In this document: in pieces, positions 37,722-52,353 of the stretch | Numbering within the stretch: the first letter of the stretch is position 1 | How the letters are laid out: each line of letters opens with the position of its first letter | From: Escherichia coli | Lineage (GTDB): Bacteria > Pseudomonadota > Gammaproteobacteria > Enterobacterales > Enterobacteriaceae | NCBI RefSeq assembly: GCF_003334765.1 | Contig: NZ_QOWT01000007.1 | Length of the DNA: 64,000 bases | Reading direction: 5' to 3' (one strand) | Notes under the pieces: generated by a model | Seen by the model: the letters and a program-made list of their open reading frames with translations, nothing else | Database searches by the model: none | Told to the model about the DNA's origin: nothing | Position numbers and translations under genes: made by a program

Positions 37722-38756
37722 ATGCGATATCACGGAGATATGTTATTAACTACTCCTGTAATCAGTACACTCAAGCAGAATTATCCCGACGCAAAAATCG
37801 ATATGCTGCTTTACCAGGATACAATTCCGATTTTATCTGAAAACCCAGAAATTAATGCACTCTATGGTATAAGCAATAAAGGTACGGGAACATTCGATAA
37901 AATTAAAAATGCACTTTCACTGATAAAAACTCTGCGTGCGAATAATTACGACCTGGTCATTAATCTTACGGATCAGTGGATGGTGGCCCTGCTGGTACGT
38001 TGTTTACCTGCTCGTATGAAAATATCGCAGCTTTATGGTCATCGGCAGCATGGCATTTGGAAAAAAAGCTTTACACACTTAGCGCCTATACACGGTACAC
38101 ATATTGTTGAGCGTAATTTGTCGGTCCTTGAGCCATTAGGTATTACCGATTTTTATACTGAAACAACCATGAGTTACGCCGAGGATTGCTGGAAGAAAAT
38201 GCGCCAGGAATTAGATGCACTGGGCGTGAAAGATCATTATGTCGTCATCCAGCCGACAGCCAGACAGATATTTAAGTGCTGGGACAACGATAAATTTTCT
38301 ATGGTTATCGATGCGTTGCAACATCGTGGTTATCAGGTTGTGCTGACTTGTGGCCCTTCGGCAGATGATCTCGCTTGCGTAGATGAAATTGCACGAGGCT
38401 GCCAAACAAAACCTATTACCGGCCTTGCCGGTAAAACACGTTTTCCTGAACTGGGCGCATTAATTGATCATGCAGTGCTCTTTATTGGTGTGGATTCTGC
38501 GCCGGGGCATATTGCAGCGGCTGTGAAGACGCCAGTTATTAGCCTGTTTGGGGCCACTGATCATGTATTCTGGCGTCCATGGACCGAGAATATTATTCAG
38601 TTCTGGGCGGGGAATTATCAAAAAATGCCTACCCGGCACGAACTTGACCGCAACAAAAAATATCTTTCTGTTATTCCAGCGGAAGATGTCATTGCCGCTA
38701 CGGAAAAGCTGTTGCCAGAAGATGCACCTTCAGCTGACAGGAATGCGCAATTATGA
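37722..38756 (+). CDS. waaQ: LPS heptosyltransferase III
   Basis: GT9 heptosyltransferase; start placed at MRYHGDMLLTTPV (344 aa); in-frame GTG at 37686 is an alternative. Confidence 0.85.
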   Translation: MRYHGDMLLTTPVISTLKQNYPDAKIDMLLYQDTIPILSENPEINALYGISNKGTGTFDKIKNALSLIKTLRANNYDLVINLTDQWMVALLVRCLPARMKISQLYGHRQHGIWKKSFTHLAPIHGTHIVERNLSVLEPLGITDFYTETTMSYAEDCWKKMRQELDALGVKDHYVVIQPTARQIFKCWDNDKFSMVIDALQHRGYQVVLTCGPSADDLACVDEIARGCQTKPITGLAGKTRFPELGALIDHAVLFIGVDSAPGHIAAAVKTPVISLFGATDHVFWRPWTENIIQFWAGNYQKMPTRHELDRNKKYLSVIPAEDVIAATEKLLPEDAPSADRNAQL

Positions 38757-39877
38757 TCGTGGCATTTTGCTTATATAAATATTTTCCATTTGGTGGGCTA
38801 CAGCGTGACTTTATGCGTATTGCCTCAACAGTTGCCGCACGGGGCCACCATGTTCGGGTATATACACAGTCGTGGGAAGGCGATTGCCCGGAAGCATTTG
38901 AGCTTATTCGCGTACCGGTTAAATCCCATACTAACCATGGACGTAATGCAGAATATTATGCCTGGGTTCAAAACCATCTGAAGGCACATCCCGCTGATCG
39001 CGTTGTTGGCTTTAATAAGATGCCTGGGCTGGATGTTTATTTTGCCGCCGATGTCTGTTATGCCGAGAAAGTGGCGCAAGAAAAGGGATTTTTCTATCGT
39101 TTAACATCGCGCTATCGCCATTATGCTGCATTCGAGCGAGCGACTTTCGAACATGGTAAATCGACGAAACTTATGATGTTGACCGATAAGCAAATCGCCG
39201 ATTTTCAGAAGCATTACCAAACTGAACCAGAACGTTTTCAAATTCTTCCCCCTGGTATCTATCCTGACAGAAAATACAACGCGCAAATCCCAAACAGTCG
39301 TGAAATTTATCGCCAGAAAAATGGCATCACTGAACAACAAAACTTATTGCTGCAGGTTGGTTCAGATTTTGGTCGTAAAGGTGTGGATCGCTCAATTGAA
39401 GCTTTGGCATCGTTACCAGAATCGTTACGCCATAATACGTTGTTGTTTGTTGTTGGCCAGGATAAACCGCGTAAATTTGAAGTGCTGGCAGAAAAACTCG
39501 GTGTGCGTAGTAAAGTGCATTTCTTTTCCGGGCGGAATGATGTGTCTGAATTAATGGCAGCCGCTGATTTATTAATGCATCCCGCTTATCAGGAGGCTGC
39601 AGGTATTGTTCTCCTTGAGGCAATTGCCGCGGGATTACCTGTGTTGACGACTGCGGTATGCGGATACGCACACTATATCACAGATGCTAATTGTGGAACG
39701 GTCATCGCTGAACCTTTCTCCCAGGAACAATTAAATGACGTTTTACGTAAAGCGTTAACTCAATCTCCATTGCGCATGGCCTGGGCGGAGAATGCTCGGT
39801 ATTACGCCGATACTCAGGATTTATACAGCCTGCCGGAGAAAGCGGCAGATATCATTACAGGTGGTTTAGATGGTTGA
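38753..39877 (+). CDS. waaG: LPS glucosyltransferase I (GT4)
   Basis: 374 aa [24 protein letters not shown]; 4-nt ATGA overlap with waaQ. Confidence 0.9.
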
Positions 39878-40667
39878 ATTAGAAGAGCCACTTGCCACAC
39901 TCTGGCGTGGTAAAGATGCCTTTGCAGAAGTTAAAAAACTGAATGGCGAGGTCTTCCGTGAACTGGAGACGCGTCGCACATTACGCTTTGAACTGGCCGG
40001 CAAAAGTTATTTCCTCAAATGGCACAAAGGGACGACCCTAAAGGAGATTATAAAAAATCTGCTCTCATTGCGGATGCCCGTTTTAGGTGCAGACAGAGAG
40101 TGGCACGCTATTCATCGACTGCATGATGTCGGTGTTGATACGATGCACGGAATAGGATTTGGTGAAAAAGGGTTAAATCCATTAACTCGCACATCATTTA
40201 TTATTACCGAAGATCTCACTCCCACAATTAGCCTTGAAGATTATTGTGCAGATTGGGCGGTCAACCCGCCTGATGTACATATTAAGCGTATGCTGATCGC
40301 GCGTGTGGCAACCATGGTGCGCAAAATGCATGCAGCAGGGATTAATCACCGTGATTGTTATATCTGCCACTTTTTACTCCATTTGCCATTTACTGGCCGG
40401 GAAGATGAATTAAAAATTTCGGTTATCGATCTGCACCGGGCACAGATACGTGCAAAAGTACCACGTCGTTGGCGGGATAAAGATTTGATTGGTTTATATT
40501 TCTCATCAATGAATATTGGTCTGACGCAGAGAGATATCTGGCGATTTATGAAGGTTTATTTTGGGATGCCTTTACGCGATATTTATAGACTTGAGATTGA
40601 TTTACTTAAAAAGGCAAGGATTAAAGCAGGAAAAATAGAAGCAAGAACAATAAGAAAAAACTTGTAA
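39870..40667 (+). CDS. waaP: LPS core heptose(I) kinase
   Basis: 265 aa; kinase-like HRDCYICHF motif; 8-nt overlap with waaG. Confidence 0.9.
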
Positions 40668-40699
40668 ATAGTATTTTATTACAAAAAGGGATTCTAAAA

Positions 40700-41680
40700 T
40701 TGTTGAAATATAGAAACTTCGTTGCTAAGAAGAAAAATTTATACCAAAACGAAGTGTCGTATGTTAAAAATTTACATATTGCACTATGCTTTGACCGTGA
40801 ATTCATAATGCCAGCGGGTGTTGCATTATATTCAATTATATCCAACAATAGACATATTAACCTTCATTTTCACCTTCTTATATCAGGCATAGAAGAAAAG
40901 GAGTGTTCAGCTTTTTACGAACTAGAAGGTCCTAATACATCAATATCTGTATATTATATAACTGATAAATTTGACATTAATCCGGATACATTAGTTCTTG
41001 GTATTCCTTTATCAACATGTTTACGTTTTTTAATCCCAGAAGTTATTGATGATAAAATAAATAAGATACTTTATCTTGACTGTGATGTCATATGTAATGG
41101 TCCTTTAGATGAACTGGTTGATTATAATTTAAATGCTGATATTGCATGTGTAATTCCAGATTCGCCAGAAATGCAAGAACGTGTAAAAAAATTAGACTAT
41201 GGCATTGAGTTTATTAATTATTTTAATGCCGGGGTTATGTTTATTAATACCAGCGAATGGAAAAAAAATAATATAACACAAAAAGCGTTAGAAATGATCA
41301 ACAGTGGAAAAGTATATAGGTATGCAGATCAGGATGTGCTCAATATTTTACTTAATGGACGAGTGCATTACCTTGATAAGAAGTACAATAATAAGACAAC
41401 ATTGTCAGTACGATGTGATGAAGAACAAAAAAACTTGCCCAACACAATTATAATGCATTATGTTACCCAGAATAAACCATGGTACAAAATATTTAGAGCA
41501 CAAAATTTTGATCATTATTTTTCAAATTCTCCTTGGAAGAACCATAAAAGAAATCTAGCTCCATCATCAAGTGAGATTAGGTTAAAGTCTAAAGTTTTTT
41601 GGCTAGAAGGAAAATATTGTAAAGCCATTTCTTATTATTATAAGTATTTACTTGTTAAATTATTTGGCTTAAAGATTTAG
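40700..41680 (+). CDS. GT8-family LPS core glycosyltransferase at the position K-12 gives to waaS
   Basis: 326 aa; GT8 motifs shared with the two downstream paralogs (LYLDCDVICNG, YFNAGVMFIN, DQDVLN, KPW); low GC. Confidence 0.6.
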   Translation: MLKYRNFVAKKKNLYQNEVSYVKNLHIALCFDREFIMPAGVALYSIISNNRHINLHFHLLISGIEEKECSAFYELEGPNTSISVYYITDKFDINPDTLVLGIPLSTCLRFLIPEVIDDKINKILYLDCDVICNGPLDELVDYNLNADIACVIPDSPEMQERVKKLDYGIEFINYFNAGVMFINTSEWKKNNITQKALEMINSGKVYRYADQDVLNILLNGRVHYLDKKYNNKTTLSVRCDEEQKNLPNTIIMHYVTQNKPWYKIFRAQNFDHYFSNSPWKNHKRNLAPSSSEIRLKSKVFWLEGKYCKAISYYYKYLLVKLFGLKI

Positions 41681-41693
41681 CTGGAATGAAATT

Positions 41694-42773
41694 ATGAAAA
41701 TAGCCTTTATTGGCGAAGCTGTTTCTGGATTTGGCGGCATGGAAACAGTCATTCGTGATGTTATTACTACCTTCAGGCAACAACATATCCAAAGTGAAAT
41801 TTTTTTCTTTTGTCGTAATGACAAAATGGATAAGGGATGGCTGGAAGGTATTAAGTACTCGTGTTCATTTTCCAATATTCGCTTAGGTTTTTTGCGTCGC
41901 GCGAAACATATTCATGCTTTAAGCAAATGGCTTCATGATTATCAGCCAGATGTTGTTATTTGTATTGACGTGATCTCGTGTTTGTATGCGGCCAAAGCTC
42001 GTAAAAAATCGGGGATTGATGTACCTGTATTTTCATGGCCGCATTTTTCTTTAGATCATAAAAAACATGCCGAATATATCACCTGTGCCGACTATCATTT
42101 AGCCATCAGCTCTGGTATTAAACAGCAAATGATTAGCCGGGGTGTACCAGAATCGACAATAAACGTTATTTTTAATCCCGTTGAGGCGAAAAATTCAGTC
42201 ATTCCTGCACCCGGGGAAGGCGAAACGGCAACATTCATTTATGTTGGGCGCATGAAATTTGAAGGCCAAAAGCGCGTAAAAGATCTGCTTGATGGCTTAT
42301 CACAAGTGCAAGGTGACTGGAAACTTCATGTATTGGGAGATGGCTCCGATTTCGAAAAATGCCAGGCTTATGGTAGAGGATTAAATATTGATGATCGAAT
42401 TGTCTGGTATGGTTGGCAACAACATCCCTGGAAATTAGTTCAGCAAGATATTAAAAAAGTGAGTGCATTATTACTCACGTCATCTTTTGAAGGTTTCCCA
42501 ATGACTCTACTTGAAGCCTTGTCGTGGGGGATCCCTTGTATCAGTGCAGATTGTGTCTCCGGGCCTGTTGATATCATTCAGCCTGATGTTAATGGTCATT
42601 TATATCAACCGGGGGATATGACCGGTTTTGTTGCTCTTCTCAATAAATACATAGCCGGTGAAATTCACATCGCACATGAAAAAATTCCGGCGTCGATCGA
42701 TAAATTTTATCAACCGAAATATTACGACAGATTGCAAAAGATAATTATTTCTGTTATTTCCCGGAGGAAATAA
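41694..42773 (+). CDS. waaB: LPS alpha-1,6-galactosyltransferase (GT4)
   Basis: 359 aa MKIAFIGEAVSGFGGMETVI...FFFCRNDKMDK; closely matches recalled WaaB. Confidence 0.8.
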   Translation: MKIAFIGEAVSGFGGMETVIRDVITTFRQQHIQSEIFFFCRNDKMDKGWLEGIKYSCSFSNIRLGFLRRAKHIHALSKWLHDYQPDVVICIDVISCLYAAKARKKSGIDVPVFSWPHFSLDHKKHAEYITCADYHLAISSGIKQQMISRGVPESTINVIFNPVEAKNSVIPAPGEGETATFIYVGRMKFEGQKRVKDLLDGLSQVQGDWKLHVLGDGSDFEKCQAYGRGLNIDDRIVWYGWQQHPWKLVQQDIKKVSALLLTSSFEGFPMTLLEALSWGIPCISADCVSGPVDIIQPDVNGHLYQPGDMTGFVALLNKYIAGEIHIAHEKIPASIDKFYQPKYYDRLQKIIISVISRRK

Positions 42774-43792
42774 TGCAGCAGGTTTTTTTCCAGGAGACTG
42801 AGTTTCTCAATTCGGTTATTGATTATAATCATAAAATAGAAGCAGAAAATCTTTGTCTGGATATTGCTTATGGGACTGACAAAAATTTTCTTTTTGGATG
42901 CGGAATATCGATTGCTTCAATATTAAAATATAATGAAGGAAATCAATTATGCTTTCATATTTTTACTGATTATTTCGGTGATGACGATCGCAAATATTTT
43001 GATGCCCTGGCCAGGCAATATAAAACAAGAATTAAGATATATTTAATTAATGGTGATCGACTCCGTTCATTACCCTGCACCAAGAACTGGACTCATGCTA
43101 TTTATTTTCGTTTTGTTATCGCCGATTACTTTTTTAATAAAGCACCCAAAGTTCTTTATCTGGATGCAGATATTATTTGTCAGGGAACTATAGAACCACT
43201 TATCAATTACACGTTTTCTGAACATACAGTCGCAATGGTTGTTACAGAAGGACAAAAAGACTGGTGGGCAAAACGTGCTCATTCGTTAGGTGTTGCTGGG
43301 ATTGCTAATGGTTACTTTAACTCCGGTTTTTTACTGATTAATACTAATCAATGGACGAATGAGCGGGTTTCTGCACGGGCCATTGCAATGTTAAGTGATC
43401 CAGAGATAGTCAAAAAAATAACACATCCTGATCAGGATGTATTAAATATGTTATTGGCAGACAAACTTGTTTATGCTGATATTAAATATAACACTCAGTT
43501 TAGTTTAAATTATCAACTAAAAGAAAGTTTTAAAAACCCAGTAACTAACGATACAGTTTTTATTCATTATATTGGTCCAACTAAACCCTGGCATGACTGG
43601 GCCTGGGATTATCCAATATCACAAGCTTTTATGGCGGCAAAAAATGCTTCACCATGGAAGGATACTGCGTTATTGAAACCGGTTAATAGTAATCAATTAA
43701 GATACAGTGCTAAACATATGTTGAAAAAAAAGCAATATATCAAAGGATTTGGCAACTATCTTTTGTATTTTATAAAAAAGCTAAAGCATTAA
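42773..43792 (+). CDS. waaO: GT8 LPS outer-core alpha-1,3-hexosyltransferase (WaaI/WaaO-like)
   Basis: 339 aa GT8 paralog; 1-nt overlap with waaB stop. Confidence 0.65.
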   Translation: MQQVFFQETEFLNSVIDYNHKIEAENLCLDIAYGTDKNFLFGCGISIASILKYNEGNQLCFHIFTDYFGDDDRKYFDALARQYKTRIKIYLINGDRLRSLPCTKNWTHAIYFRFVIADYFFNKAPKVLYLDADIICQGTIEPLINYTFSEHTVAMVVTEGQKDWWAKRAHSLGVAGIANGYFNSGFLLINTNQWTNERVSARAIAMLSDPEIVKKITHPDQDVLNMLLADKLVYADIKYNTQFSLNYQLKESFKNPVTNDTVFIHYIGPTKPWHDWAWDYPISQAFMAAKNASPWKDTALLKPVNSNQLRYSAKHMLKKKQYIKGFGNYLLYFIKKLKH

Positions 43793-43802
43793 TACTGATA
43801 AT

Positions 43803-43931
43803 CTATACTCTAAATAATTCGAGTTGCAGGACAAAAAGCCAGTGGCGTTTTGAGGAACGCTTGCGTTGGCCCTGAAATGCCGAGTAACTCGCCGATGCAG
43901 CACATGCAACTTGAAGTATAACGAGTATATA
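43803..43931. repeat. ERIC/IRU-like imperfect palindromic intergenic repeat, variant centre
   Basis: Ends CTATACTCTAAATAATTCGAGTTGCAGG ... GCACATGCAACTTGAAGTATAACGAGTATATA are inverted copies of each other, a sequence class I recognise as ERIC arms; the centre lacks the canonical ERIC core. Confidence 0.45.
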
Positions 43932-43955
43932 AAGTAATGATATAAGGATAGCCTT

Positions 43956-44972
43956 GTGAACTCATTTCCTGCCATAGAGATAGATAAAGTTAAAGCCTGG
44001 GATTTTAGGCTTATTGATGAAAATACTGCTGAAAGTTTAAATGTTGCCTATGGTGTCGATTCCAATTATCTTGATGGTGTAGGTGTTTCCATTACTTCAA
44101 TTGTCATTAATAATCGACATGTTAATCTTGATTTTTATATTATTGCTGATGTTTATAACGACGATTTCTTTCAAAAAGTTGAGAAACTTGCTGAGCAATA
44201 CCAATTAAGAATCACACTTTATAGAATAAATACTGATAATCTTCAGTGCCTGCCTTGTACACAAGTCTGGTCAAGAGCAATGTACTTCCGTTTATTTGCT
44301 TTTCAATTATTGGGAGTAACACTTAATCGTTTGCTTTATCTTGATGCCGATGTAGTTTGTAAGGGAAATATTAGTCAACTATTGCATTTAGAGTTTAATG
44401 GAGCGGTGGCTGCAGTAGTCAGGGATGTAGACCCAATGCAGGAAAAGGCGGTAGTCAGATTATCTGATCCTGAACTTCGGGGGCAGTATTTTAATTCTGG
44501 TGTCGTTTACTTAGACCTAAAAAAATGGACAGAAGCAAAACTAACCGAAAAAGCACTGTCTATTCTTATGAGTAAAGATAGTATTTATAAGTATCCTGAC
44601 CAGGACGTTATGAATGTCCTACTAAAAGGGATGACAATATTCCTGCCACGTGAGTTCAATACTATATATACAATAAAAAGTGAGTTAAAAGATAAAACGC
44701 ATCAAAAATATAAAGAGTTGATAAAAGAGGATACTCTTCTTATTCATTATACTGGGGCCACCAAGCCGTGGCACAAATGGGCAATTTATCCATCGGTAAA
44801 ATACTATAAAATAGCTTTAGAAAGATCCCCCTGGAAAGATGACTCACCACGAGATGCAAAATCAATTATTGAATTCAAAAAAAGATATAAACATCTGTTA
44901 GTGCAACATCATTATATCTCAGGACTCATTGCAGGAGTGTGTTATCTTTGCCGAAAATATTACCGTAAATAA
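43956..44972 (+). CDS. waaJ: GT8 LPS outer-core alpha-1,2-glucosyltransferase
   Basis: 338 aa; N-terminus and body closely match recalled K-12 WaaJ/WaaR (…SFPAIEIDKVKAWDF..., C-terminal HHYISG.IAGVCYLCRKYYRK). Confidence 0.8.
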   Translation: MNSFPAIEIDKVKAWDFRLIDENTAESLNVAYGVDSNYLDGVGVSITSIVINNRHVNLDFYIIADVYNDDFFQKVEKLAEQYQLRITLYRINTDNLQCLPCTQVWSRAMYFRLFAFQLLGVTLNRLLYLDADVVCKGNISQLLHLEFNGAVAAVVRDVDPMQEKAVVRLSDPELRGQYFNSGVVYLDLKKWTEAKLTEKALSILMSKDSIYKYPDQDVMNVLLKGMTIFLPREFNTIYTIKSELKDKTHQKYKELIKEDTLLIHYTGATKPWHKWAIYPSVKYYKIALERSPWKDDSPRDAKSIIEFKKRYKHLLVQHHYISGLIAGVCYLCRKYYRK

Positions 44973-44989
44973 CATTTAACTGGTTTAAC

Positions 44990-45688
44990 ATGATTCAGAA
45001 GAATAAAATCAAAGATTTAGTTGTTTTTACCGATGAAAATAACTCAAAGTATCTCAATGTATTAAATGACTTTCTTTCTTATGATATTAATATCATCAAA
45101 GTTTTTCGTTCTATAGATGATACAAAAGTCATGCTTATTGATACCGATTACGGTAAATTGATACTTAAAGTTTTTTCGCCTAAAGTAAAACGCAACGAAC
45201 GTTTCTTTAAATCTCTTTTAAAGGGAGATTATTATGAACGCCTTTTTGAGCATACTCAAAAAGTGCGTAACGAGGGGCTACATTCTCTCAATGATTTTTA
45301 TTTGTTGGCAGAACGGAAAACATTACGTTTTGTCCATACTTATATCATGCTTATCGAATATATCGATGGCGTAGAGTTGTGTGATATCCCCGATATTGAT
45401 GAAACTTTAAAAAATAAAATTCAACAATCAATTCGTTCATTACACGAACACGGTATGGTATCTGGTGATCCTCACCGCGGTAATTTTATTATTGAAAATG
45501 GTGAAGTACGCATTATTGATCTTTCAGGAAAACGGGCATCTGCACAACGTAAAGCGAAAGATCGTATTGATTTAGAGCGACATTATGGTATTAAGAATGA
45601 GGTTAAAGATCTCGGTTATTATCTTTTAGTTTATCGTAAAAAAATACGTAATCTTATGCGGCGTTTGAAAGGGAAGCCAGCACGATAA
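44990..45688 (+). CDS. waaY: LPS core heptose(II) kinase
   Basis: 232 aa, kinase-like; position after waaJ. Confidence 0.85.
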   Translation: MIQKNKIKDLVVFTDENNSKYLNVLNDFLSYDINIIKVFRSIDDTKVMLIDTDYGKLILKVFSPKVKRNERFFKSLLKGDYYERLFEHTQKVRNEGLHSLNDFYLLAERKTLRFVHTYIMLIEYIDGVELCDIPDIDETLKNKIQQSIRSLHEHGMVSGDPHRGNFIIENGEVRIIDLSGKRASAQRKAKDRIDLERHYGIKNEVKDLGYYLLVYRKKIRNLMRRLKGKPAR

Positions 45689-45759
45689 AGTAAAAGTCTT
45701 ACATTTAAACGTCTTCGTCAGGACATTTCTATGCGGAGTTCTTATTTCACAGGTTTATC

Positions 45760-46569
45760 ATGAAGAATATTAGATACATTGACAAAAAAGATGTTGAAAA
45801 CCTGATAGAAAGTAAAACGTCTGATGATGTTATTATTTTTCTTTCCGGCCCCACATCGCAAAAAACACCATTGTCAGTGCTGCAGACAAGGGATGTTATT
45901 GCTGTCAATGGTTCTGCACAATATCTATTAAGTCATAATATTATTCCCTATATTTATGTACTTACCGATGTTCGCTTTTTACATCAACGGCGTGATGATT
46001 TTTATAAATTTAGCCAGAGAAGTCGTTATACCATCGTAAATGTTGACGTTTATGAACATGCTTCTGAAGAAGATAAGCGGTACATCCTTCAAAACTGCCT
46101 GGTACTACGTTCATTTTACCGCAGAGAAAAAGGTGGATTGATCAAGAAGATCAAGTTTAATATTTTGAGCCGAATTCATAAAGAGCTCCTGATCTCTGTA
46201 CCTTTTTCTAAAAAAGGTCGTCTGGTTGGCTTTTGCAAGGATATTAACCTCGGTTATTGTTCATGCCATACCGTTGCTTTTGCTGCAATCCAAATAGCCT
46301 ATTCGCTGAAGTATGCTCGTATTATCTGTTCAGGCCTTGATTTAACGGGTAGCTGTTCGCGTTTCTATGATGAAGATAAGAATCCTATGCCCTCAGAGTT
46401 GATTCGGGATTTATTCAAAATTTTACCATTTTTCCGTTTTATGCGTGAAAATATAGAAGATATCAATATTTATAATTTATCCGACGATACTGCAATTCAA
46501 TATGATATTATTCCCTATATGAAAATATCCGAAATTGAAGAGCCGTGTGTTTATGAAAAAATAAGCTAA
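45760..46569 (+). CDS. waaZ: LPS core biosynthesis protein WaaZ (KdoIII-associated)
   Basis: 269 aa; position and similarity to recalled WaaZ; low GC. Confidence 0.7.
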   Translation: MKNIRYIDKKDVENLIESKTSDDVIIFLSGPTSQKTPLSVLQTRDVIAVNGSAQYLLSHNIIPYIYVLTDVRFLHQRRDDFYKFSQRSRYTIVNVDVYEHASEEDKRYILQNCLVLRSFYRREKGGLIKKIKFNILSRIHKELLISVPFSKKGRLVGFCKDINLGYCSCHTVAFAAIQIAYSLKYARIICSGLDLTGSCSRFYDEDKNPMPSELIRDLFKILPFFRFMRENIEDINIYNLSDDTAIQYDIIPYMKISEIEEPCVYEKIS

Positions 46570-46621
46570 TATTTTATATGTGTTTATTACGTGTTATAAA
46601 TTATATTGGAGTTGGCTAATA

Positions 46622-47764
46622 ATGATTAAAAAAATAATATTTACCGTCACACCAATATTTTCTATACCGCCAAAAGGAGCTGCAGCGGTTGAAACATGGA
46701 TTTATCAGGTCGCAAAAAGACTTTCGATTCCAGTAACTATCGCCTGTATTCGAAACGAAGGTTACCCAACCTACACAAAAGTAAATGATCACTGTGATAT
46801 TCACTACATTGGTTTTAGTCGAGTCTATAAACGACTTTTCCAAAAGTGGACTCGACTTGATCCTGTGCCATATTCTCAGCGTATTTTAAATACCCAACCT
46901 AAAAACACTGATCCGAAAGACTCTGTTATTGTTATCCACAATAGCATGAAGCTGTATAAACAGATTCGTAGCAGAAGCCCTCACGCGCAGCTAGTTATGC
47001 ATCTTCATAATGCTTTCGAGCCAGGTGAGTTAGACAAAAATGCAAAGATAATTGTTCCTAGCCAGTTTCTTTTCGATTTCTATTCGGAAAAAATGCCTGA
47101 TGCAAATATTGCTATTGTGCCTAATGGTTTTTGTTCTGAATCGTATGAACAAAATAATACTGAAGATTTGAGGCAGAAACTGAACATTGATGCAAATGAT
47201 ACCGTGTTATTATTTGCAGGAAGGATATCACCAGATAAAGGTTGCCTGATGCTTATGGAGGCTTTTAATCAGCTGAATAAGATACAAGATAACCTCAAAC
47301 TGGTGATTGTCGGAGATCCTTTTGCCAGTAAAAAAGGCGAAAAAGCTGAATATCAGAAAAAAGTTCTGGATGCAGCGAAAGCTATTGGAGCGCAATGCAT
47401 TATGGCGGGTGGACAGCCTCCAGAGCAGATGCATAACTATTACCGTTTAGCAGATTTAGTTGTTGTTCCTTCTCAGGTAGAAGAAGCTTTTTGTATGGTA
47501 GCTGTTGAAGCGATGGCGGCAGGTAAACCAGTGCTTGCCAGTCAAAAAGGTGGAATTAGTGAGTTTGTTCTGGAAGGAATTACAGGCTATCACCTTGCAG
47601 AGCCTATGACATCTGAAAGTATTCTCGCGGATATTAAGCGCGTTTTGGCGGATGCTGACAGAGCTCAAATTGCTAAAAATGCCCGAAATTTTGTTTTCTC
47701 AAAATATAGCTGGGAACATGTTACTCAGCGTTTTGAAGCACAAATACAAGACTGGTTTGGTTAA
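46622..47764 (+). CDS. waaK: GT4 glycosyltransferase, WaaK-like (GlcNAc transferase in Salmonella and R2 cores)
   Basis: ORF 46580..47764; start at MIKKIIFTV with GGAG Shine-Dalgarno (381 aa); GT4 EX7E-type C-terminal domain; not a GT9 heptosyltransferase like K-12 WaaU. Confidence 0.65.
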   Translation: MIKKIIFTVTPIFSIPPKGAAAVETWIYQVAKRLSIPVTIACIRNEGYPTYTKVNDHCDIHYIGFSRVYKRLFQKWTRLDPVPYSQRILNTQPKNTDPKDSVIVIHNSMKLYKQIRSRSPHAQLVMHLHNAFEPGELDKNAKIIVPSQFLFDFYSEKMPDANIAIVPNGFCSESYEQNNTEDLRQKLNIDANDTVLLFAGRISPDKGCLMLMEAFNQLNKIQDNLKLVIVGDPFASKKGEKAEYQKKVLDAAKAIGAQCIMAGGQPPEQMHNYYRLADLVVVPSQVEEAFCMVAVEAMAAGKPVLASQKGGISEFVLEGITGYHLAEPMTSESILADIKRVLADADRAQIAKNARNFVFSKYSWEHVTQRFEAQIQDWFG

Positions 47765-47782
47765 AAATTATTGGATTTGAAG

Positions 47783-47819
47783 AGCCTGCCTGAACTTAAT
47801 GTCAGGCAGGCTTTTTTTT
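47783..47819 (+). terminator. intrinsic terminator at the end of the waaQ operon, overlapping the waaL stop
   Basis: AGCCTGCCTGA-acttaatg-TCAGGCAGGCT 11-bp stem followed by T8. Confidence 0.75.
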
Positions 47820-49035
47820 ATTTATTCCGCATTGCTAACAGTAAACCAACAATCAAGCCAATTGGTTTGAGATCAACTTCCTCGAAGTTACCTCGAATAA
47901 TATAAAAGCTTACAAGCGTTAAAAATAGTAGTAATTGACCATTATAAGGAGTGACGACAACTGTTTTAAACGTTGCATTAGCTGTCTCTTTGATAATAGA
48001 GCCATACAGATAAAGTAAAGCGAGTAGTCCAGCCAAACCCGCTGCAAACCAAATTGACAAAACAACGTTGTGTGGCCCAATGGATTGCCTGAACTTCCAT
48101 GACGGAAAATCTACAACACGCTTATTATATATTGCATGGTAAATATCATCGCCGTAGCCATATCCCTTAAGAGGATTTTCCATAATTAATGTCCACGCCG
48201 TACCTTGAGTACCATTGGTATAGCGATAAGAACTGTCGGTCTGTTGAAGTTTATAAATAAGCCTGTCTTTACCAGCATGATCACCTTTATAGGTAAATAC
48301 ACCCACTGCGGCAACAGAAATAACGATGGAAGTCAGCATCAATAATTTCCACTGACGATTTAAGATTAACCATAGCAGAGTCACTATGAATACTGCCAGC
48401 CATGCACCACGAGACAGCGTTCCTAATAGCAGAAATAAGAAAACTGCACTAAAAATTACGAATGCTATTTTATAAGAGGTTTTCTTGATAAGCCAAAGGT
48501 TTAATAATGCTGGAAACAGAAACACCATTGAATCGGAAATACTACGGTGTTCATAGGTGGAAAATGGCATTATTCCTTTATTATAATCCTGAATATAAAG
48601 AATAAGTTCAACAAGACAACGTAAGCCAAGTCCGGTAACTAATGAGTATAGTACAATTTTACCAATGCTTTCATTATCTTCATCTTTTAATAATGCAGGT
48701 ATAAGTAAACTATAGGCCAAAAATCCTTTAAGTACCGTATTACTGAATTCTTTAAAACTGATTTTCAGATCAGGTGATATAAAAGTAGCATATAAAAGAA
48801 TGAGTGATAGTGCCAGGACACTATAAAAAAGATTATTTTTATAGAGTACTTTAAATGTTCCCGGAGCACGAGAAACTTGATAGATTACCGTAATAATCAT
48901 TAGTATAGATATGATGTGTTTATAACGGGTTATACCATCAAGGAAAAAGGTTGCAATAAAGAGGAATACCAACGCTTTATTCCAGTACGGTTTCCACTTT
49001 TCTTTATTACGTAGCGCCAGCGAGGCTGTTAACAT
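47818..49035 (-). CDS. waaL: O-antigen ligase
   Basis: 405 aa polytopic protein, N-terminus MLTASLALRNKEKWKPYWNKALVFLF; resembles the Salmonella-type WaaL I recall, not K-12 WaaL. Confidence 0.8.
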   Translation of the reverse strand: MLTASLALRNKEKWKPYWNKALVFLFIATFFLDGITRYKHIISILMIITVIYQVSRAPGTFKVLYKNNLFYSVLALSLILLYATFISPDLKISFKEFSNTVLKGFLAYSLLIPALLKDEDNESIGKIVLYSLVTGLGLRCLVELILYIQDYNKGIMPFSTYEHRSISDSMVFLFPALLNLWLIKKTSYKIAFVIFSAVFLFLLLGTLSRGAWLAVFIVTLLWLILNRQWKLLMLTSIVISVAAVGVFTYKGDHAGKDRLIYKLQQTDSSYRYTNGTQGTAWTLIMENPLKGYGYGDDIYHAIYNKRVVDFPSWKFRQSIGPHNVVLSIWFAAGLAGLLALLYLYGSIIKETANATFKTVVVTPYNGQLLLFLTLVSFYIIRGNFEEVDLKPIGLIVGLLLAMRNK

Positions 49036-49073
49036 TGCTTCTCCACCATCTTAAATAATATATAACGTATTAA

Positions 49074-50030
49074 TCAGGAATTGATTTTATTAAATACCGT
49101 TTCTGCAGTCAGATGAGCAAGATCTTTATCTGGTGCCCTACAAACCACCTGATTCTTCCCATATCCGCCAATTAATCCCGGATCGGTTGGTCCATAAACC
49201 GTGATATTCGGTCGATCCAGTGCTGCAGTTAAATGACTTAACCCAGTGTCTACCGATACCACGAATTTCGCTCCGGCCAGCACACGGGCAACACCTTCCA
49301 GACTCATCTTCGGCAATACTTCAACATAAGCAAATCCTTCCGCCAGTCGTTTCGCCCGTTTTTCCTCATGCGGCGCACCCCACGGAAGTTTAATGCGAAT
49401 CCCTGAATCTGCCAGTAAACCAATCAATTCTCGCCAGTGTTCTTCCGGCCAGTGTTTATCATCACGGGTCGTCGCATGAAGAAATACGGCATATTCGCCA
49501 GCATCTGTAGGCAGGTTCGTCAGAAAATGCTGTGCGATAGCATAATCGCCCTGGGTTTGCGGTTTGCTATAGCCCAGACTTTTGGCAAAAAGTTCGCGGA
49601 TGCGTTCTACGGCGTGCTGCTGTTTTGCAATATGATGTTTACGATTGTAAAACAGGCTGGCTAAAGGTTCGCGAGCGGTTTGCCAGTCCATTCCATGCTT
49701 TACGCCATGCGCCAGACGCGTCACCAGCGCCGCGCTTTTTACCAGCCCCTGAGCATCGATAACTGCGTCATAGTTCTCTGCTTGTAGCGCTTCACGAAAC
49801 GCTTTGCGTTCAGCTTTTATGGGGGCCGAGAACCAGGCTTTACGCCAGCGACGTATTGCCACAGGAATAACTCGCTCAACGGCGGCGTGCCAGGAAGGAA
49901 TCTGTGCGAACCCTTCTTCCACCACCCAGTCAAACTTAATCCCTGGGATTGCCTGCTGGGCATCAGTGAGTGCGGGCAACGTATGGAGAACATCGCCCAT
50001 CGACGATGTTTTAACGATCAAAACCCGCAT
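49074..50030 (-). CDS. waaC: LPS heptosyltransferase I
   Basis: 318 aa MRVLIVKTSSMGDVLHTLPALTDA, GT9. Confidence 0.9.
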   Translation of the reverse strand: MRVLIVKTSSMGDVLHTLPALTDAQQAIPGIKFDWVVEEGFAQIPSWHAAVERVIPVAIRRWRKAWFSAPIKAERKAFREALQAENYDAVIDAQGLVKSAALVTRLAHGVKHGMDWQTAREPLASLFYNRKHHIAKQQHAVERIRELFAKSLGYSKPQTQGDYAIAQHFLTNLPTDAGEYAVFLHATTRDDKHWPEEHWRELIGLLADSGIRIKLPWGAPHEEKRAKRLAEGFAYVEVLPKMSLEGVARVLAGAKFVVSVDTGLSHLTAALDRPNITVYGPTDPGLIGGYGKNQVVCRAPDKDLAHLTAETVFNKINS

Positions 50031-50033
50031 CCG

Positions 50034-51080
50034 TCAGGCTTCCTCTTGTAACAATAGAGAGTTGAGTTCTTCCAGCACGCGCTGGGGAGTAATGTCGATC
50101 AAGCTCTGGTGATAACCTTCTGCGGCGTCGCCTTTGCGTACTTTGTGATAGCCGGTAATCAGGCGGATCACGCGCGCTTTATGGGATAGCGGCGGTGTGA
50201 AGTCCGGGCTACTCGGACCATACAGGGCAACCAGCGGACGATTGAGCGCCGCCGCAACGTGCATCAGGCCAGAATCGTTAGTGACAATGGCTTTACAGGC
50301 TGCAATCAGGATAACCGCTTGATCAAGCTGTGTTTCCCCCGCCAGGTTCCGGCACCATGCCTGCTGCTCGGTATTTAAAGCGGCAAGAATCTCATTGCCC
50401 GCTTCATGATCTTTCGCCGAGCCAAACAGAACCACTTGATAACCTTCATCAATCAGTTGCTTTGCCAGTTCCGCATAGTGGTAGTGTGGCCAGCGTTTTG
50501 CCGGACCAAACTCCGCACCCGGGCAAAAACCAATCATTGGACGTTCTGATGAAAGCGAAAATTGATTACAGGTATATGATTTTTCACCTTCGCTCACCTG
50601 CAACTGCGGCCATAACAATGGCTGCGGCAGATCTTGTGCGGTACGCATAATACCTTTGTCATAGGCCAGCGCCACATAGCGTTCCACCATCAGCGGCCAG
50701 GCTTCTTTATCCAGCACACGCACATCGTTGAGTAAACCGTAGCGCATTTCGCCGCGCCAGCCGGTGCGATGAGGAATACCCGCGAAGAAAGGCACTAATG
50801 CGGATTTGAAGGAGTTGGGTAAAACGTAGGCGCGGTCGTAACGTTTTTCGCGCAGGCTATGACCCAGCTTGCGGCGTTCGCCAATTTCCAGCGCCCCGTG
50901 ACCAAGCGGCATAGGAATGGCTTCGTTAACTTCCGGCATCCGCGATAATAATGGACGGCACCATGCCGGTGCCATCACGTCGATTATCGCCTGGGGATAG
51001 CGCGCCTGGAGCGTGCGATAGAGACTTTGCGACATCATCATGTCGCCAACCCATGACGGGCCGATCACCAATATTTTCAT
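50034..51080 (-). CDS. waaF: LPS heptosyltransferase II
   Basis: 348 aa MKILVIGPSWVGDMMMSQSLYRTLQ, GT9. Confidence 0.9.
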   Translation of the reverse strand: MKILVIGPSWVGDMMMSQSLYRTLQARYPQAIIDVMAPAWCRPLLSRMPEVNEAIPMPLGHGALEIGERRKLGHSLREKRYDRAYVLPNSFKSALVPFFAGIPHRTGWRGEMRYGLLNDVRVLDKEAWPLMVERYVALAYDKGIMRTAQDLPQPLLWPQLQVSEGEKSYTCNQFSLSSERPMIGFCPGAEFGPAKRWPHYHYAELAKQLIDEGYQVVLFGSAKDHEAGNEILAALNTEQQAWCRNLAGETQLDQAVILIAACKAIVTNDSGLMHVAAALNRPLVALYGPSSPDFTPPLSHKARVIRLITGYHKVRKGDAAEGYHQSLIDITPQRVLEELNSLLLQEEA

Positions 51081-51207
51081 TCACTTCATCCTTCAAGCTG
51101 TCTCTGCGGCGGCTGCCTGCGTTCACTCCGGTCACTTACTTTTGTAAGCTCCCGGAGATTCACTTAGCTGCTGCCTTGATACCGCTCGAATGATTTTGTG
51201 AATTTAC
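51081..51207. repeat. ERIC (IRU) element between hldD and waaF
   Basis: Gene-strand core GTGAATCTCCGGGAGCTTACAAAAGTAAGTGACCGGAGTGAACG (plus 51120..51163) matches the ERIC1R-complement/ERIC2 primer sequence GTGAATCCCCAGGAGCTTACATAAGTAAGTGACTGGGGTGAGCG with compensatory stem changes; about 127 bp. Confidence 0.7.
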
Positions 51208-52140
51208 GTTGATGTCGCGATTCAGCCAGGCCATGTATTCCGTTACGCCTTCGGCAACGGTTTTGAACGGTTTGTCATAACCCGCCGCGCGCAGATTCGT
51301 CAGATCTGCCTGCGTGAATGCCTGATAGCGGCCTTTCAGTTTATCCGGGAACGGAATGTATTCGATCTGGCCTTTCTTGTGATAAGCAAGCGTTGCATCG
51401 GCTACCGCCTGGAAGGATTCCGCACGACCAGTACCGAGGTTGAAGATGCCGGAAACGCCATTTTCCAGGAACCACAGGTTTACATCTGCCACGTCGCCAA
51501 CATAGACGAAGTCGCGTTTAAAGTTCTCGCTACCTTCGAACAGCTTCGGTGATTCACCGTTATTAAGCTGGGTGTTGAGATGGAAAGCGACGCTCGCCAT
51601 GCTGCCTTTATGGCCTTCACGCGGTCCATAAACGTTGAAATAACGGAAGCCAACAATCTGTGAGTTTGCTTCCGGCAGAATTTGACGAACATATTCATCA
51701 AACAGGAATTTCGAGTAACCGTAGACGTTCAACGGTTTTTCGTACTCGCGGGATTCAATAAAGTCGGAAGTGCGACCGCCGTAAGTGGCTGCGGATGAAG
51801 CGTACAGGAACGGGATTTCACGCTCCAGGCAGTAGTGCAGCAGCTCCTTGGAGTATTGATAGTTGTTATCCATCATATACTTGCCGTCCCACTCGGTGGT
51901 GGAAGAGCACGCGCCTTCGTGGAAAATCGCTTCGACATCGCCGAACTCTTCGCCAGCCATAATCTGGATCAGGAAGTCTTCCTTATCCATATAGTCTGCG
52001 ATATTCAGGTCCACCAGGTTCACAAACTTGGTGCCGTCTTTCAGGTTGTCCACCACCAGAATATCGGTGATGCCTTTGTCATTCAGGGCTTTAACGATGT
52101 TGCTGCCGATAAAGCCCGCGCCGCCGGTAACGATGATCAT
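51160..52140 (-). CDS. hldD: ADP-L-glycero-D-manno-heptose 6-epimerase, open frame extended into the ERIC element
   Basis: 326-aa ORF; residues 1-309 read as HldD ([23 protein letters not shown] ... EYMAWLNRD), then 17 extra residues [17 protein letters not shown] encoded by the repeat; recalled K-12 protein ends ...WLNRDA at 310 aa. Confidence 0.85.
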
Positions 52141-52353
52141 AACTGTAACCTTCGAATTGTGGAGTCAGAGACAATCTCAGACACGAATACTTCTATCATA
52201 TCACTACACGGCGCTGGCTACAGCCATTCACCGAAAGTGGTATGCCTGAGCGTGATTTATGCTTATTTTTTGACAAGTACAAATGCTTCATCTCGTATCA
52301 ACCTATGGCTTTCGGTAATATGTGCTGAAATTTGCCCAGTCTGGAGAATCGCG

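Follow-up and report, generated by a model that had tools for sequence, protein, structure and literature searches.

ERIC elements, also named IRU or RU-1, are repeats of Enterobacteriaceae that were reportedly described by Sharples and Lloyd in 1990, by Hulton, Higgins and Sharp in 1991, and by Wilson and Sharp in 2006. The subject here is an ERIC between hldD (rfaD) and waaF (rfaF) on the minus strand of a 64-kb stretch of Escherichia coli DNA (the window), which lies within the hldD-waaF-waaC-waaL gene string, is entered by the reading frame of hldD and provides the Shine-Dalgarno (SD) sequence of waaF. The operon is that for heptose and the LPS core, and waaF encodes an LPS-core heptosyltransferase. 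Coupling of two cistrons by ribosomes that melt an inhibitory mRNA structure operates at rpmI-rplT in the infC operon of E. coli and at coat-replicase in the RNA phage MS2. Fusions in which RU-1 deletes the stop codon of an open reading frame (ORF) and extends its C-terminus have been catalogued, with the amidase ECA3499 and the threonine dehydrogenase ECA0168 of Erwinia carotovora (Pectobacterium) as examples (Delihas, 2007; PMC2759123). A review notes that ERICs can lie inside genes and that some ERIC loci of E. coli are strain-specific (PMC10969869). According to summaries in two articles, ERICs are co-transcribed with neighbouring genes, and ERICs inside operons of Yersinia modulate mRNA levels in an orientation-dependent manner; the mechanism proposed is that ribosomes unfold the ERIC and thereby uncover an RNase E site in its 3′ terminal repeat (De Gregorio, 2005, via PMC2229807 and PMC10969869).

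The hldD-waaF locus shares features with each of these systems. As in the RU-1 fusions, hldD loses its normal stop codon, and the extension falls beyond the conserved domain and is missing in orthologs with an empty junction; with 326 instead of 310 residues and an in-frame read into the repeat, hldD is a 3′ ERIC-ORF fusion in the catalogued sense, and with one of the fusions it shares a similar repeat frame (...HSS... motif; RU-1 peptide YTRHTSSC...). Unlike those fusions, it has orthologs in other genera and is a polymorphism within one species, the gene that follows takes its ribosome-binding site from the same ERIC, and there is evidence for selective constraint, a subject that the survey did not address. 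As in the Yersinia operons, a hairpin between cistrons is entered by ribosomes, which at hldD-waaF is predicted from the sequence; the difference from the Yersinia ERICs described there is that the 3′ terminal repeat doubles as the waaF initiation region. As at rpmI-rplT and MS2 coat-replicase, the downstream SD and AUG are predicted to be sequestered by sequence of the upstream ORF, but the sequestering structure was donated by a mobile repeat rather than evolved in place, and the mechanism is a prediction only. The literature searched makes no mention of an ERIC at hldD/rfaD-waaF/rfaF, the strain-specific loci of Wilson and Sharp 2006 lying outside that search. The element is therefore new or at least not visibly documented, although the ERIC family and ERIC 3′ fusions were already known. 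Relative to the initial annotation of the window, the new points are the cross-genus orthology, the signs of selection, a waaF ribosome-binding site that is donated by the ERIC and predicted to be sequestered, and the link with one core-type haplotype.

Identity of the Repeat

On the gene strand the core of the element, GTGAATCTCCGGGAGCTTACAAAAGTAAGTGACCGGAGTGAACG (51120-51163), matches the complement of primer ERIC1R at 19 of 22 positions (51142-51163) and primer ERIC2 at another 19 of 22 (51120-51141). Scores this high occur nowhere else in the 64-kb window, and thus no second ERIC was found there. Relative to the primers, CCCCAG is changed to CTCCGG and CTGGGG to CCGGAG, with two substitutions on each side that leave the 6-bp palindrome perfect. 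Tests of ERIC identity that do not depend on the primers are given by the alignment to a K-12 copy and by the dispersed relatives. Positions 7-132 (126 bp) of the sequence that fills the junction align to the 127-bp ERIC at hsdM-hsdR of K-12 with 81.9% identity (E = 5e-25), and every one of the 5,426 complete E. coli genomes contains relatives of the filler, at 47,957 places in total and a median of 10 per genome (blastn, E ≤ 1e-3). In a multiple alignment with ERIC copies from five other loci all sequences, the element included, are collinear from end to end, and the alignment with the queA-acpH, puuR-puuC, yeiL-psuT and rhlB-gppA copies has a mean column identity of 77%, flanks included. The RNA of the element folds into one long hairpin with a minimum free energy of -63.1 kcal/mol (z = -5.8; none of 200 shuffled sequences folds as well), and the element is bounded by a 6-bp terminal inverted repeat, ATTCAC/GTGAAT.

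Rfam contains no ERIC family as such. Its family V_AS5 (RF02818; Vibrio RNA AS5) matches the element over its full length (51082-51205) with 29.4 bits (E = 7e-4; gathering threshold 96 bits), and also matches every canonical ERIC tested with 28-48 bits, all below that threshold. Since its score, like those of the canonical ERICs, falls below the threshold, the hldD-waaF element counts as a repeat related to V_AS5 and not as one of the Vibrio family's own members. V_AS5, for its part, amounts to a family modelled on a Vibrio ERIC. The roughly 97 ERIC copies reported for V. cholerae fit with V_AS5 matching ERICs (PMC2267715).

With the ERIC/IRU/RU-1 family the element shares its length of about 126 bp, the imperfect palindrome, the ERIC1R/ERIC2 core, the multicopy and dispersed occurrence, the position at a transcribed intergenic site of an operon and a presence that differs between strains. 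It differs from typical ERICs in being 82% identical to its best E. coli paralog, in having TTCAC/GTGAA rather than TACAC/GTGTA termini, in the three mismatches to each primer, and in being partly coding and without a visible clean TA duplication. That it is a bona fide ERIC (IRU/RU-1), that is, a miniature inverted-repeat element, and that it has the evolutionary history given below can, taken jointly, be regarded as nearly certain. The initial annotation, made from the letters of the window, had proposed an ERIC/IRU element with palindrome-keeping changes between the two genes, and the full-length ERIC alignments, the primer matches and the strength of the hairpin agree with it on both counts. 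Neither promoter-like nor intrinsic-terminator-like signals were found when the element was scanned, so that a role of the ERIC as a promoter or as an intrinsic terminator is rejected.

The Filled and the Empty Junction

In E. coli B, 15 bp lie between the D309 codon of hldD and the ATG of waaF (GCA TAA gagctctgc); the empty alleles of E. coli B and of HCM-27C-1 both end in ...WLNRDA-TAA, followed by 9 nt and the waaF ATG. In the window these 15 bp are replaced by 133 bp (51081-51213), consisting of a 9-nt linker and the ERIC, which is a net gain of 118 bp, and the gap from the hldD stop to the waaF ATG amounts to 79 nt (51081-51159). A spacer of about 127 bp, as first stated, corresponds neither to this gap nor to the stretch that differs. 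HldD residues 1-309 (51214-52140) show 100% identity to the K-12 enzyme of 310 residues whose crystal structure is available (PDB 1EQ2; phmmer against PDB), and A310 of the K-12 protein is replaced by 17 residues, of which the first three are the I-N-V of the linker and the other 14 are encoded by the ERIC. Translation and the comparison with 1EQ2 thereby confirm that the hldD frame has no stop at the K-12 position and runs on for 17 codons to give 326 residues; the read into the repeat holds, but the first three of these codons are linker and not ERIC. The enzyme had also been called essential, which is overstated, hldD not being strictly essential in E. coli; rfaD/htrM null mutants of E. coli are viable, deep-rough and temperature-sensitive.

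K-12 has no ERIC at hldD-waaF, since its best match to the element is the hsdM-hsdR copy. The hldD and waaF flanks of the window are E. coli-like up to the junction, with 93-99% identity to E. coli B and 72-93% to other genera, and wholesale import of hldD-waaF from another genus is rejected on these values. Insertion at a TA target in the present E. coli empty junction is likewise rejected: the filled allele lacks its 15 bp, GCATAAGAGCTCTGC, and has 9 unrelated nucleotides at the left instead.

Orthologous Insertions in Other Genera

Orthologs were located through a search with the C-terminal peptide, which returned HldD fragments with ...SQNHSS... tails that differ at the junction, and the DNA was then compared. 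An ERIC at hldD-waaF is present in nine lineages, E. coli included. In Raoultella planticola and R. ornithinolytica the junction is filled and HldD has 326 residues, while in a Phytobacter-like and a Klebsiella-like lineage the junction is filled and HldD has 314 residues because a TAA comes earlier, within the left terminal repeat; the other filled lineages are an ‘Enterobacter sp.’ metagenome-assembled genome and three further assemblies. All nine have in common the site, the orientation, the frame, the 9-nt linker and the right junction, in which ...GAAGGATGAAGTGA is followed directly by the ATG, and the tails of the orthologs use the same ERIC frame as the E. coli tail. By contrast, Salmonella, the E. 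cloacae complex and Cronobacter have an empty junction and a 310-residue HldD (...NRDA), and in Salmonella and E. cloacae hldD and waaF are directly joined as TAA-GT-ATG. These empty junctions indicate from comparative sequence that the empty state is ancestral and the ERIC a derived insertion. An alignment (MAFFT) that placed GAGCT of the empty allele on the core might suggest that the empty allele is an internally deleted ERIC, but this is rejected as a 5-nt chance match, because Salmonella and E. cloacae have only GT between stop and ATG.

The insertion of the ERIC was probably a single event. The ERIC would have entered, a long time ago and only once, a tight stop/start junction like that of Salmonella/Enterobacter (GAC GCG TAA GT ATG), upon which the old hldD stop would have been lost and reading would have run through the linker and the left arm of the ERIC to a TGA bordering its core, with 326 residues as the result. 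Whether the 9-nt linker is a relic of GCG-TAA-GTA is speculation: the length fits, and the sequence match of 1-4/9 is at chance level.

Constraint on the Element

The ERIC has diverged less than the sequence next to it. In all 15 lineage pairs its divergence (K = 0.02-0.33) is below that at the adjacent third codon positions of waaF (0.46-0.76), and across the lineages its divergence is 2-30 times slower than that of the third codon positions nearby. Between pairs of orthologs 40-45 of 45 positions of the right arm (89-100%) and 36-47 of 48 of the left arm are identical, with the apical part more variable. The linker, by contrast, is always 9 nt long, and only 2-6 of its 9 positions are identical between lineages, which is almost saturated, compared with 73-98% for the ERIC.

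The structure is kept as well as the sequence. In the consensus hairpin 98.3% of the stem cells are paired in the nine orthologs, compared with 24-46% when the partners are slid by 1-3 columns, and four stem pairs are changed on both sides, with covariation in the core at columns 61/91, 62/90 and 64/88. The basal helix (columns 14-19/134-139) is paired to 100% in the nine orthologs, and two lineages have a C-G to U-A double change in it. In these same two lineages a C-to-T change creates the early TAA (TTCAC to TTCAT), and the partner in the right repeat is changed from G to A (GAAGTG to GAAATG). The wobble pairs are asymmetric, with 29 G-U cells against two A-C cells; prediction of the structure on the sense strand biases these counts, but the comparison of energies sequence by sequence, which is free of that bias, finds all nine orthologs 6-15 kcal/mol more stable as sense than as antisense RNA. 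From the G-U excess and the stability of the sense RNA, the constraint seems to act on the hldD-waaF mRNA. Taken together, the ERIC at hldD-waaF is probably under purifying selection.

The explanation that competes best with selection is that the ERIC is a neutral hitch-hiker, a tolerated selfish MITE (miniature inverted-repeat transposable element) with an inert tail and an inert hairpin, whose frequency follows the linked core-type haplotype. The tight linkage with one waaL allele (480 filled genomes and 501 with the allele), the absence of the element from most E. coli and Salmonella, a tail without predicted structure (in a poor model) behind unchanged HldD residues 1-309, and the frequency of ERIC-ORF fusions, mostly of unknown function (PMC2759123), would all agree with neutrality. 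It is nevertheless unlikely, since a neutral sequence would not be expected to be so much more conserved than the third codon positions beside it while the abutting linker is saturated, to have its stem restored by compensatory changes, including at the very pair hit by the stop-creating mutation, to have its wobble pairs skewed toward the sense strand, or to provide the waaF SD in every filled allele.

Less probable still is that the similarity between genera reflects recent horizontal transfer, gene conversion of the patch or homogenisation by other ERIC copies instead of selection. A short-tract move of linker and ERIC between E. coli haplotypes is visible in strain Z1323CEC0014 (see below), the adjacent 150-nt window at the 5′ end of waaF and the 3′ end of hldD is 91-97% identical between genera, which is enough for recombination, and the waa locus is a mosaic. 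However, with a linker that is only 2-6/9 identical the breakpoints would have to hit the edge of the ERIC exactly each time, and divergence of the flanks at the level of genera reaches right up to the junction. Homogenisation by other copies is disfavoured by the terminal repeats, since the orthologs share TTCAC/GTGAA, which is absent from the E. coli paralogs (TACAC/GTGTA), and the best paralog is only 82% identical.

The HldD C-Terminal Tail

The 17-residue tail of HldD is most likely a tolerated, unstructured by-product and not a functional domain. It is hydrophilic, of low complexity and without predicted secondary structure (AlphaFold2 with a 21-sequence alignment; mean pLDDT 60, a poor model overall), and its linker residues vary between lineages (INV, RDI, NAT, TDA, NGT, NHA, SDT). 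That the extended C-terminus is itself functional, altering activity, oligomerisation, stability or localisation, is highly improbable: E. coli, Raoultella and two more lineages retain the frame and the tail length (326 residues) and the linker is free of any indel in all nine, but two lineages have cut the tail to four residues together with a compensating change in the RNA stem, the tail sequence is set by the ERIC consensus in that frame, and neither the predicted lack of structure in the poor model nor the free variation of the linker residues points to a function.

Initiation of waaF

In every filled allele the SD of waaF is provided by the ERIC. In the predicted fold SD and AUG of waaF lie in the two basal helices (1-2), paired with codons 313-319 of the HldD tail. 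In the free filled mRNA the SD has a probability of being unpaired, P(unpaired), of 0.26, compared with 72% unpaired in the empty allele, and the predicted energy to open the waaF initiation region is 14.9 kcal/mol for the filled and 4.3 kcal/mol for the empty allele. When the footprint of a ribosome is modelled on tail codons 313-321, P(unpaired) of the SD rises above 0.9.

These predictions suggest a mechanism in which the ERIC hairpin of the hldD-waaF mRNA would bury the waaF SD and AUG against the strand that encodes the HldD tail, and ribosomes translating the tail would melt the basal helices and briefly expose the waaF initiation region. Translation of waaF would thereby stay coupled to that of hldD despite the 118 nt inserted, as in the ancestral stop/start junction. 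In the lineages with a 314-residue HldD, termination would place the ribosome right on the basal helices. An RNase E site in the right terminal repeat could become accessible when the helices are melted, as has been suggested for the Yersinia ERICs, and this would set the relative stability of the hldD and the waaF-waaC-waaL segments of the mRNA; unmasking of waaF initiation and processing by RNase E are compatible, and both may act. Unmasking by ribosomes is put forward as a tentative model, for which folding predictions make a possible but not yet a probable case.

At three of six sampled ERIC loci the right end, ...TTGAAGGATGAAG(T/A)GTAT, runs into a downstream ATG (waaF, gppA and acpH), the abutting ends lying at 51078-51093 of the window, at about 400-421 of the extracted rhlB-gppA locus (O157:H7) and at about 408-429 of the extracted queA-acpH locus. 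The right end of ERIC may be a portable translation-initiation cassette with an AAGGA SD at near-optimal spacing.

Weighing the Explanation

As a whole, the account given here, combining ERIC identity, history, selection and mechanism, is on balance the best explanation of the locus, favoured with modest confidence. Several points weigh against it. With regard to identity and history, no clean TA target duplication is recognisable: the canonical TA...TA positions are AA...TG here, and a TA 2 nt further left of the ERIC occurs only in E. coli and one ortholog. Several of the taxon names given to orthologs are provisional, having been taken from metagenome or Logan assemblies. The single-insertion history and the view of the linker as a relic stop codon draw only on length and position. 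As to selection, conservation of the terminal repeats and the right arm is common to the whole ERIC family and may have a cause other than waaF expression, for example a former transposition signal or a site for a host factor. Most E. coli, Salmonella and E. cloacae thrive without the element, and any benefit is small or context-dependent. Regarding the mechanism, the basis of the coupling model is thermodynamic folding only. A ribosome at the TGA no longer covers the basal helices and the predicted accessibility of the SD falls back to 0.26, so that any unmasking would be transient. Furthermore, the right end of the rhlB-gppA ERIC also abuts a start codon, while the upstream ORF stops before the ERIC, and expression of a gene that follows an ERIC therefore does not in general depend on read-in.

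A further-reaching proposal is that of a domesticated MITE, which would have taken over the intercistronic control of hldD-waaF with a ribosome-binding site opened only by ribosomes translating hldD, would have been kept by selection for coupling or processing across enterobacterial genera, would segregate with one E. coli core type, and whose right end would generally be a portable ribosome-binding site; in this full form it is unlikely.

Distribution in E. coli

The filled junction is found in 480 of the 5,426 complete E. coli genomes (8.8%), 478 of them with at least 99% identity, from humans, livestock, frogs, vegetables and water. The initial annotation had allowed for the possibility that K-12 and most E. 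coli carry the same junction, or that no ERIC match would hold; K-12 is empty, most genomes are empty and the match is significant. Its description of the arrangement as uncommon is right in the sense of a minority allele, but the arrangement is not peculiar to the strain: the exact 326-residue HldD is the RefSeq protein ‘MULTISPECIES [Escherichia]’ WP_000587765.1, present on 926 contigs, there are orthologous insertions, and fusions of this class are known. The tail of the window (...KAAAK) is a minor subtype, and most filled genomes have ...KAATK.

The waaL allele of the window (47818-49035), 2 kb from the ERIC, occurs in 501 of the 5,426 genomes, a set that almost coincides with the filled one and has strains in common with the filled list, from which it follows that the ERIC allele, as a minority allele (~9%), marks one waaL/LPS (lipopolysaccharide) core-type haplotype. 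The waa cluster of the window (38000-50000) comprises a GlcNAc-transferase gene, waaZ, rfaY, rfaJ, waaO, waaB, an extra GT8 gene, rfaP, rfaG and rfaQ; this gene content looks like that of the K-12/R2/Salmonella core-type group.

In strain Z1323CEC0014 the same linker and ERIC lie within a B-like flanking haplotype, the nearest differences to the window being at 51242 and 51081, which shows that the patch of linker and ERIC was moved between E. coli haplotypes by short-tract recombination. The boundary between ERIC and waaF in this strain reads GTGCATG instead of GTGAATG (the base at 51081 of the window), the C being common to the TGCATG of the empty allele. Judging by these bases, the breakpoint seems to fall no more than 1-2 nt from the end of the ERIC. 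In a segment of about 70 bp between kbl and hldD, upstream of hldD (~52240-52310 of the window), there are two substitution-dense haplotypes, one in both filled sequences (window, Z1323CEC0014) and the other in both empty ones (B, HCM-27C-1), and it is possible at n = 2 versus 2 that the promoter-region allele of hldD and the junction allele co-vary. A 90%-identity protein cluster with the 326-residue HldD also lists Klebsiella RfaF (339-352 residues), with a representative of 352 residues, which is either an oddity of clustering or a fused or misjoined hldD-waaF ORF in some genome.

Features of the Locus

The features are collected in the table. The minus-strand gene order in the window is kbl, hldD, waaF, waaC, waaL, which is the usual one, and the RefSeq annotation of the same sequence in strain H3 is identical in layout. 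Inside the waaF coding sequence (CDS) there is a terminator-like GC-rich hairpin with a T-rich run (50954-50976, minus strand), at chance level with one found and 0.7 expected.

Table. Features at and around the hldD-waaF junction, in window coordinates.
Feature	Position	Strand	Description and source
waaF (rfaF) CDS	50034..51080	minus	348 aa; start codon adjoins and overlaps the right end of the ERIC; ORF list, RefSeq
Right terminal inverted repeat GTGAAT	51079..51084	minus	complements ATTCAC at 51198-51203; final two bases, A and T, belong to the waaF ATG
ERIC/IRU element	51082..51207	minus	~126 bp; ‘left’ arm in the hldD tail, ‘right’ arm toward waaF
waaF Shine-Dalgarno AAGGA	51089..51093	minus	from the right arm of the ERIC, 8 nt before the ATG; predicted to pair with hldD-tail codons
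ERIC central core (ERIC1R-complement and ERIC2 region)	51120..51163	minus	apical hairpin with compensated CTCCGG/CCGGAG stem
ERIC-encoded HldD tail	51160..51204	minus	codons 313-326 and TGA (51160-51162); left hairpin arm
hldD (rfaD) CDS	51160..52140	minus	326 aa and TGA; ORF list and RefSeq annotation of the identical strain H3 sequence, WP_000587765.1
Linker ATCAACGTA	51205..51213	minus	9 nt, codons 310-312 (I-N-V), between D309 and the ERIC; ortholog alignment

Significance

ERICs are used widely for strain typing, while evidence on what they do in the cell is thin. For typing itself, the ERIC-PCR primers mismatch the hldD-waaF copy at three positions each, and one waa haplotype can be recognised cheaply by its ERIC allele; for annotation, the 326-residue HldD is not to be treated as an error. 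With filled and empty alleles in one species and orthologs in other genera, hldD-waaF offers a natural, isogenic-like comparison. The locus is a test case for the co-option of a MITE as an element of intercistronic coupling or processing, and it also tests whether the ratio of hldD to waaF expression differs between LPS core types.

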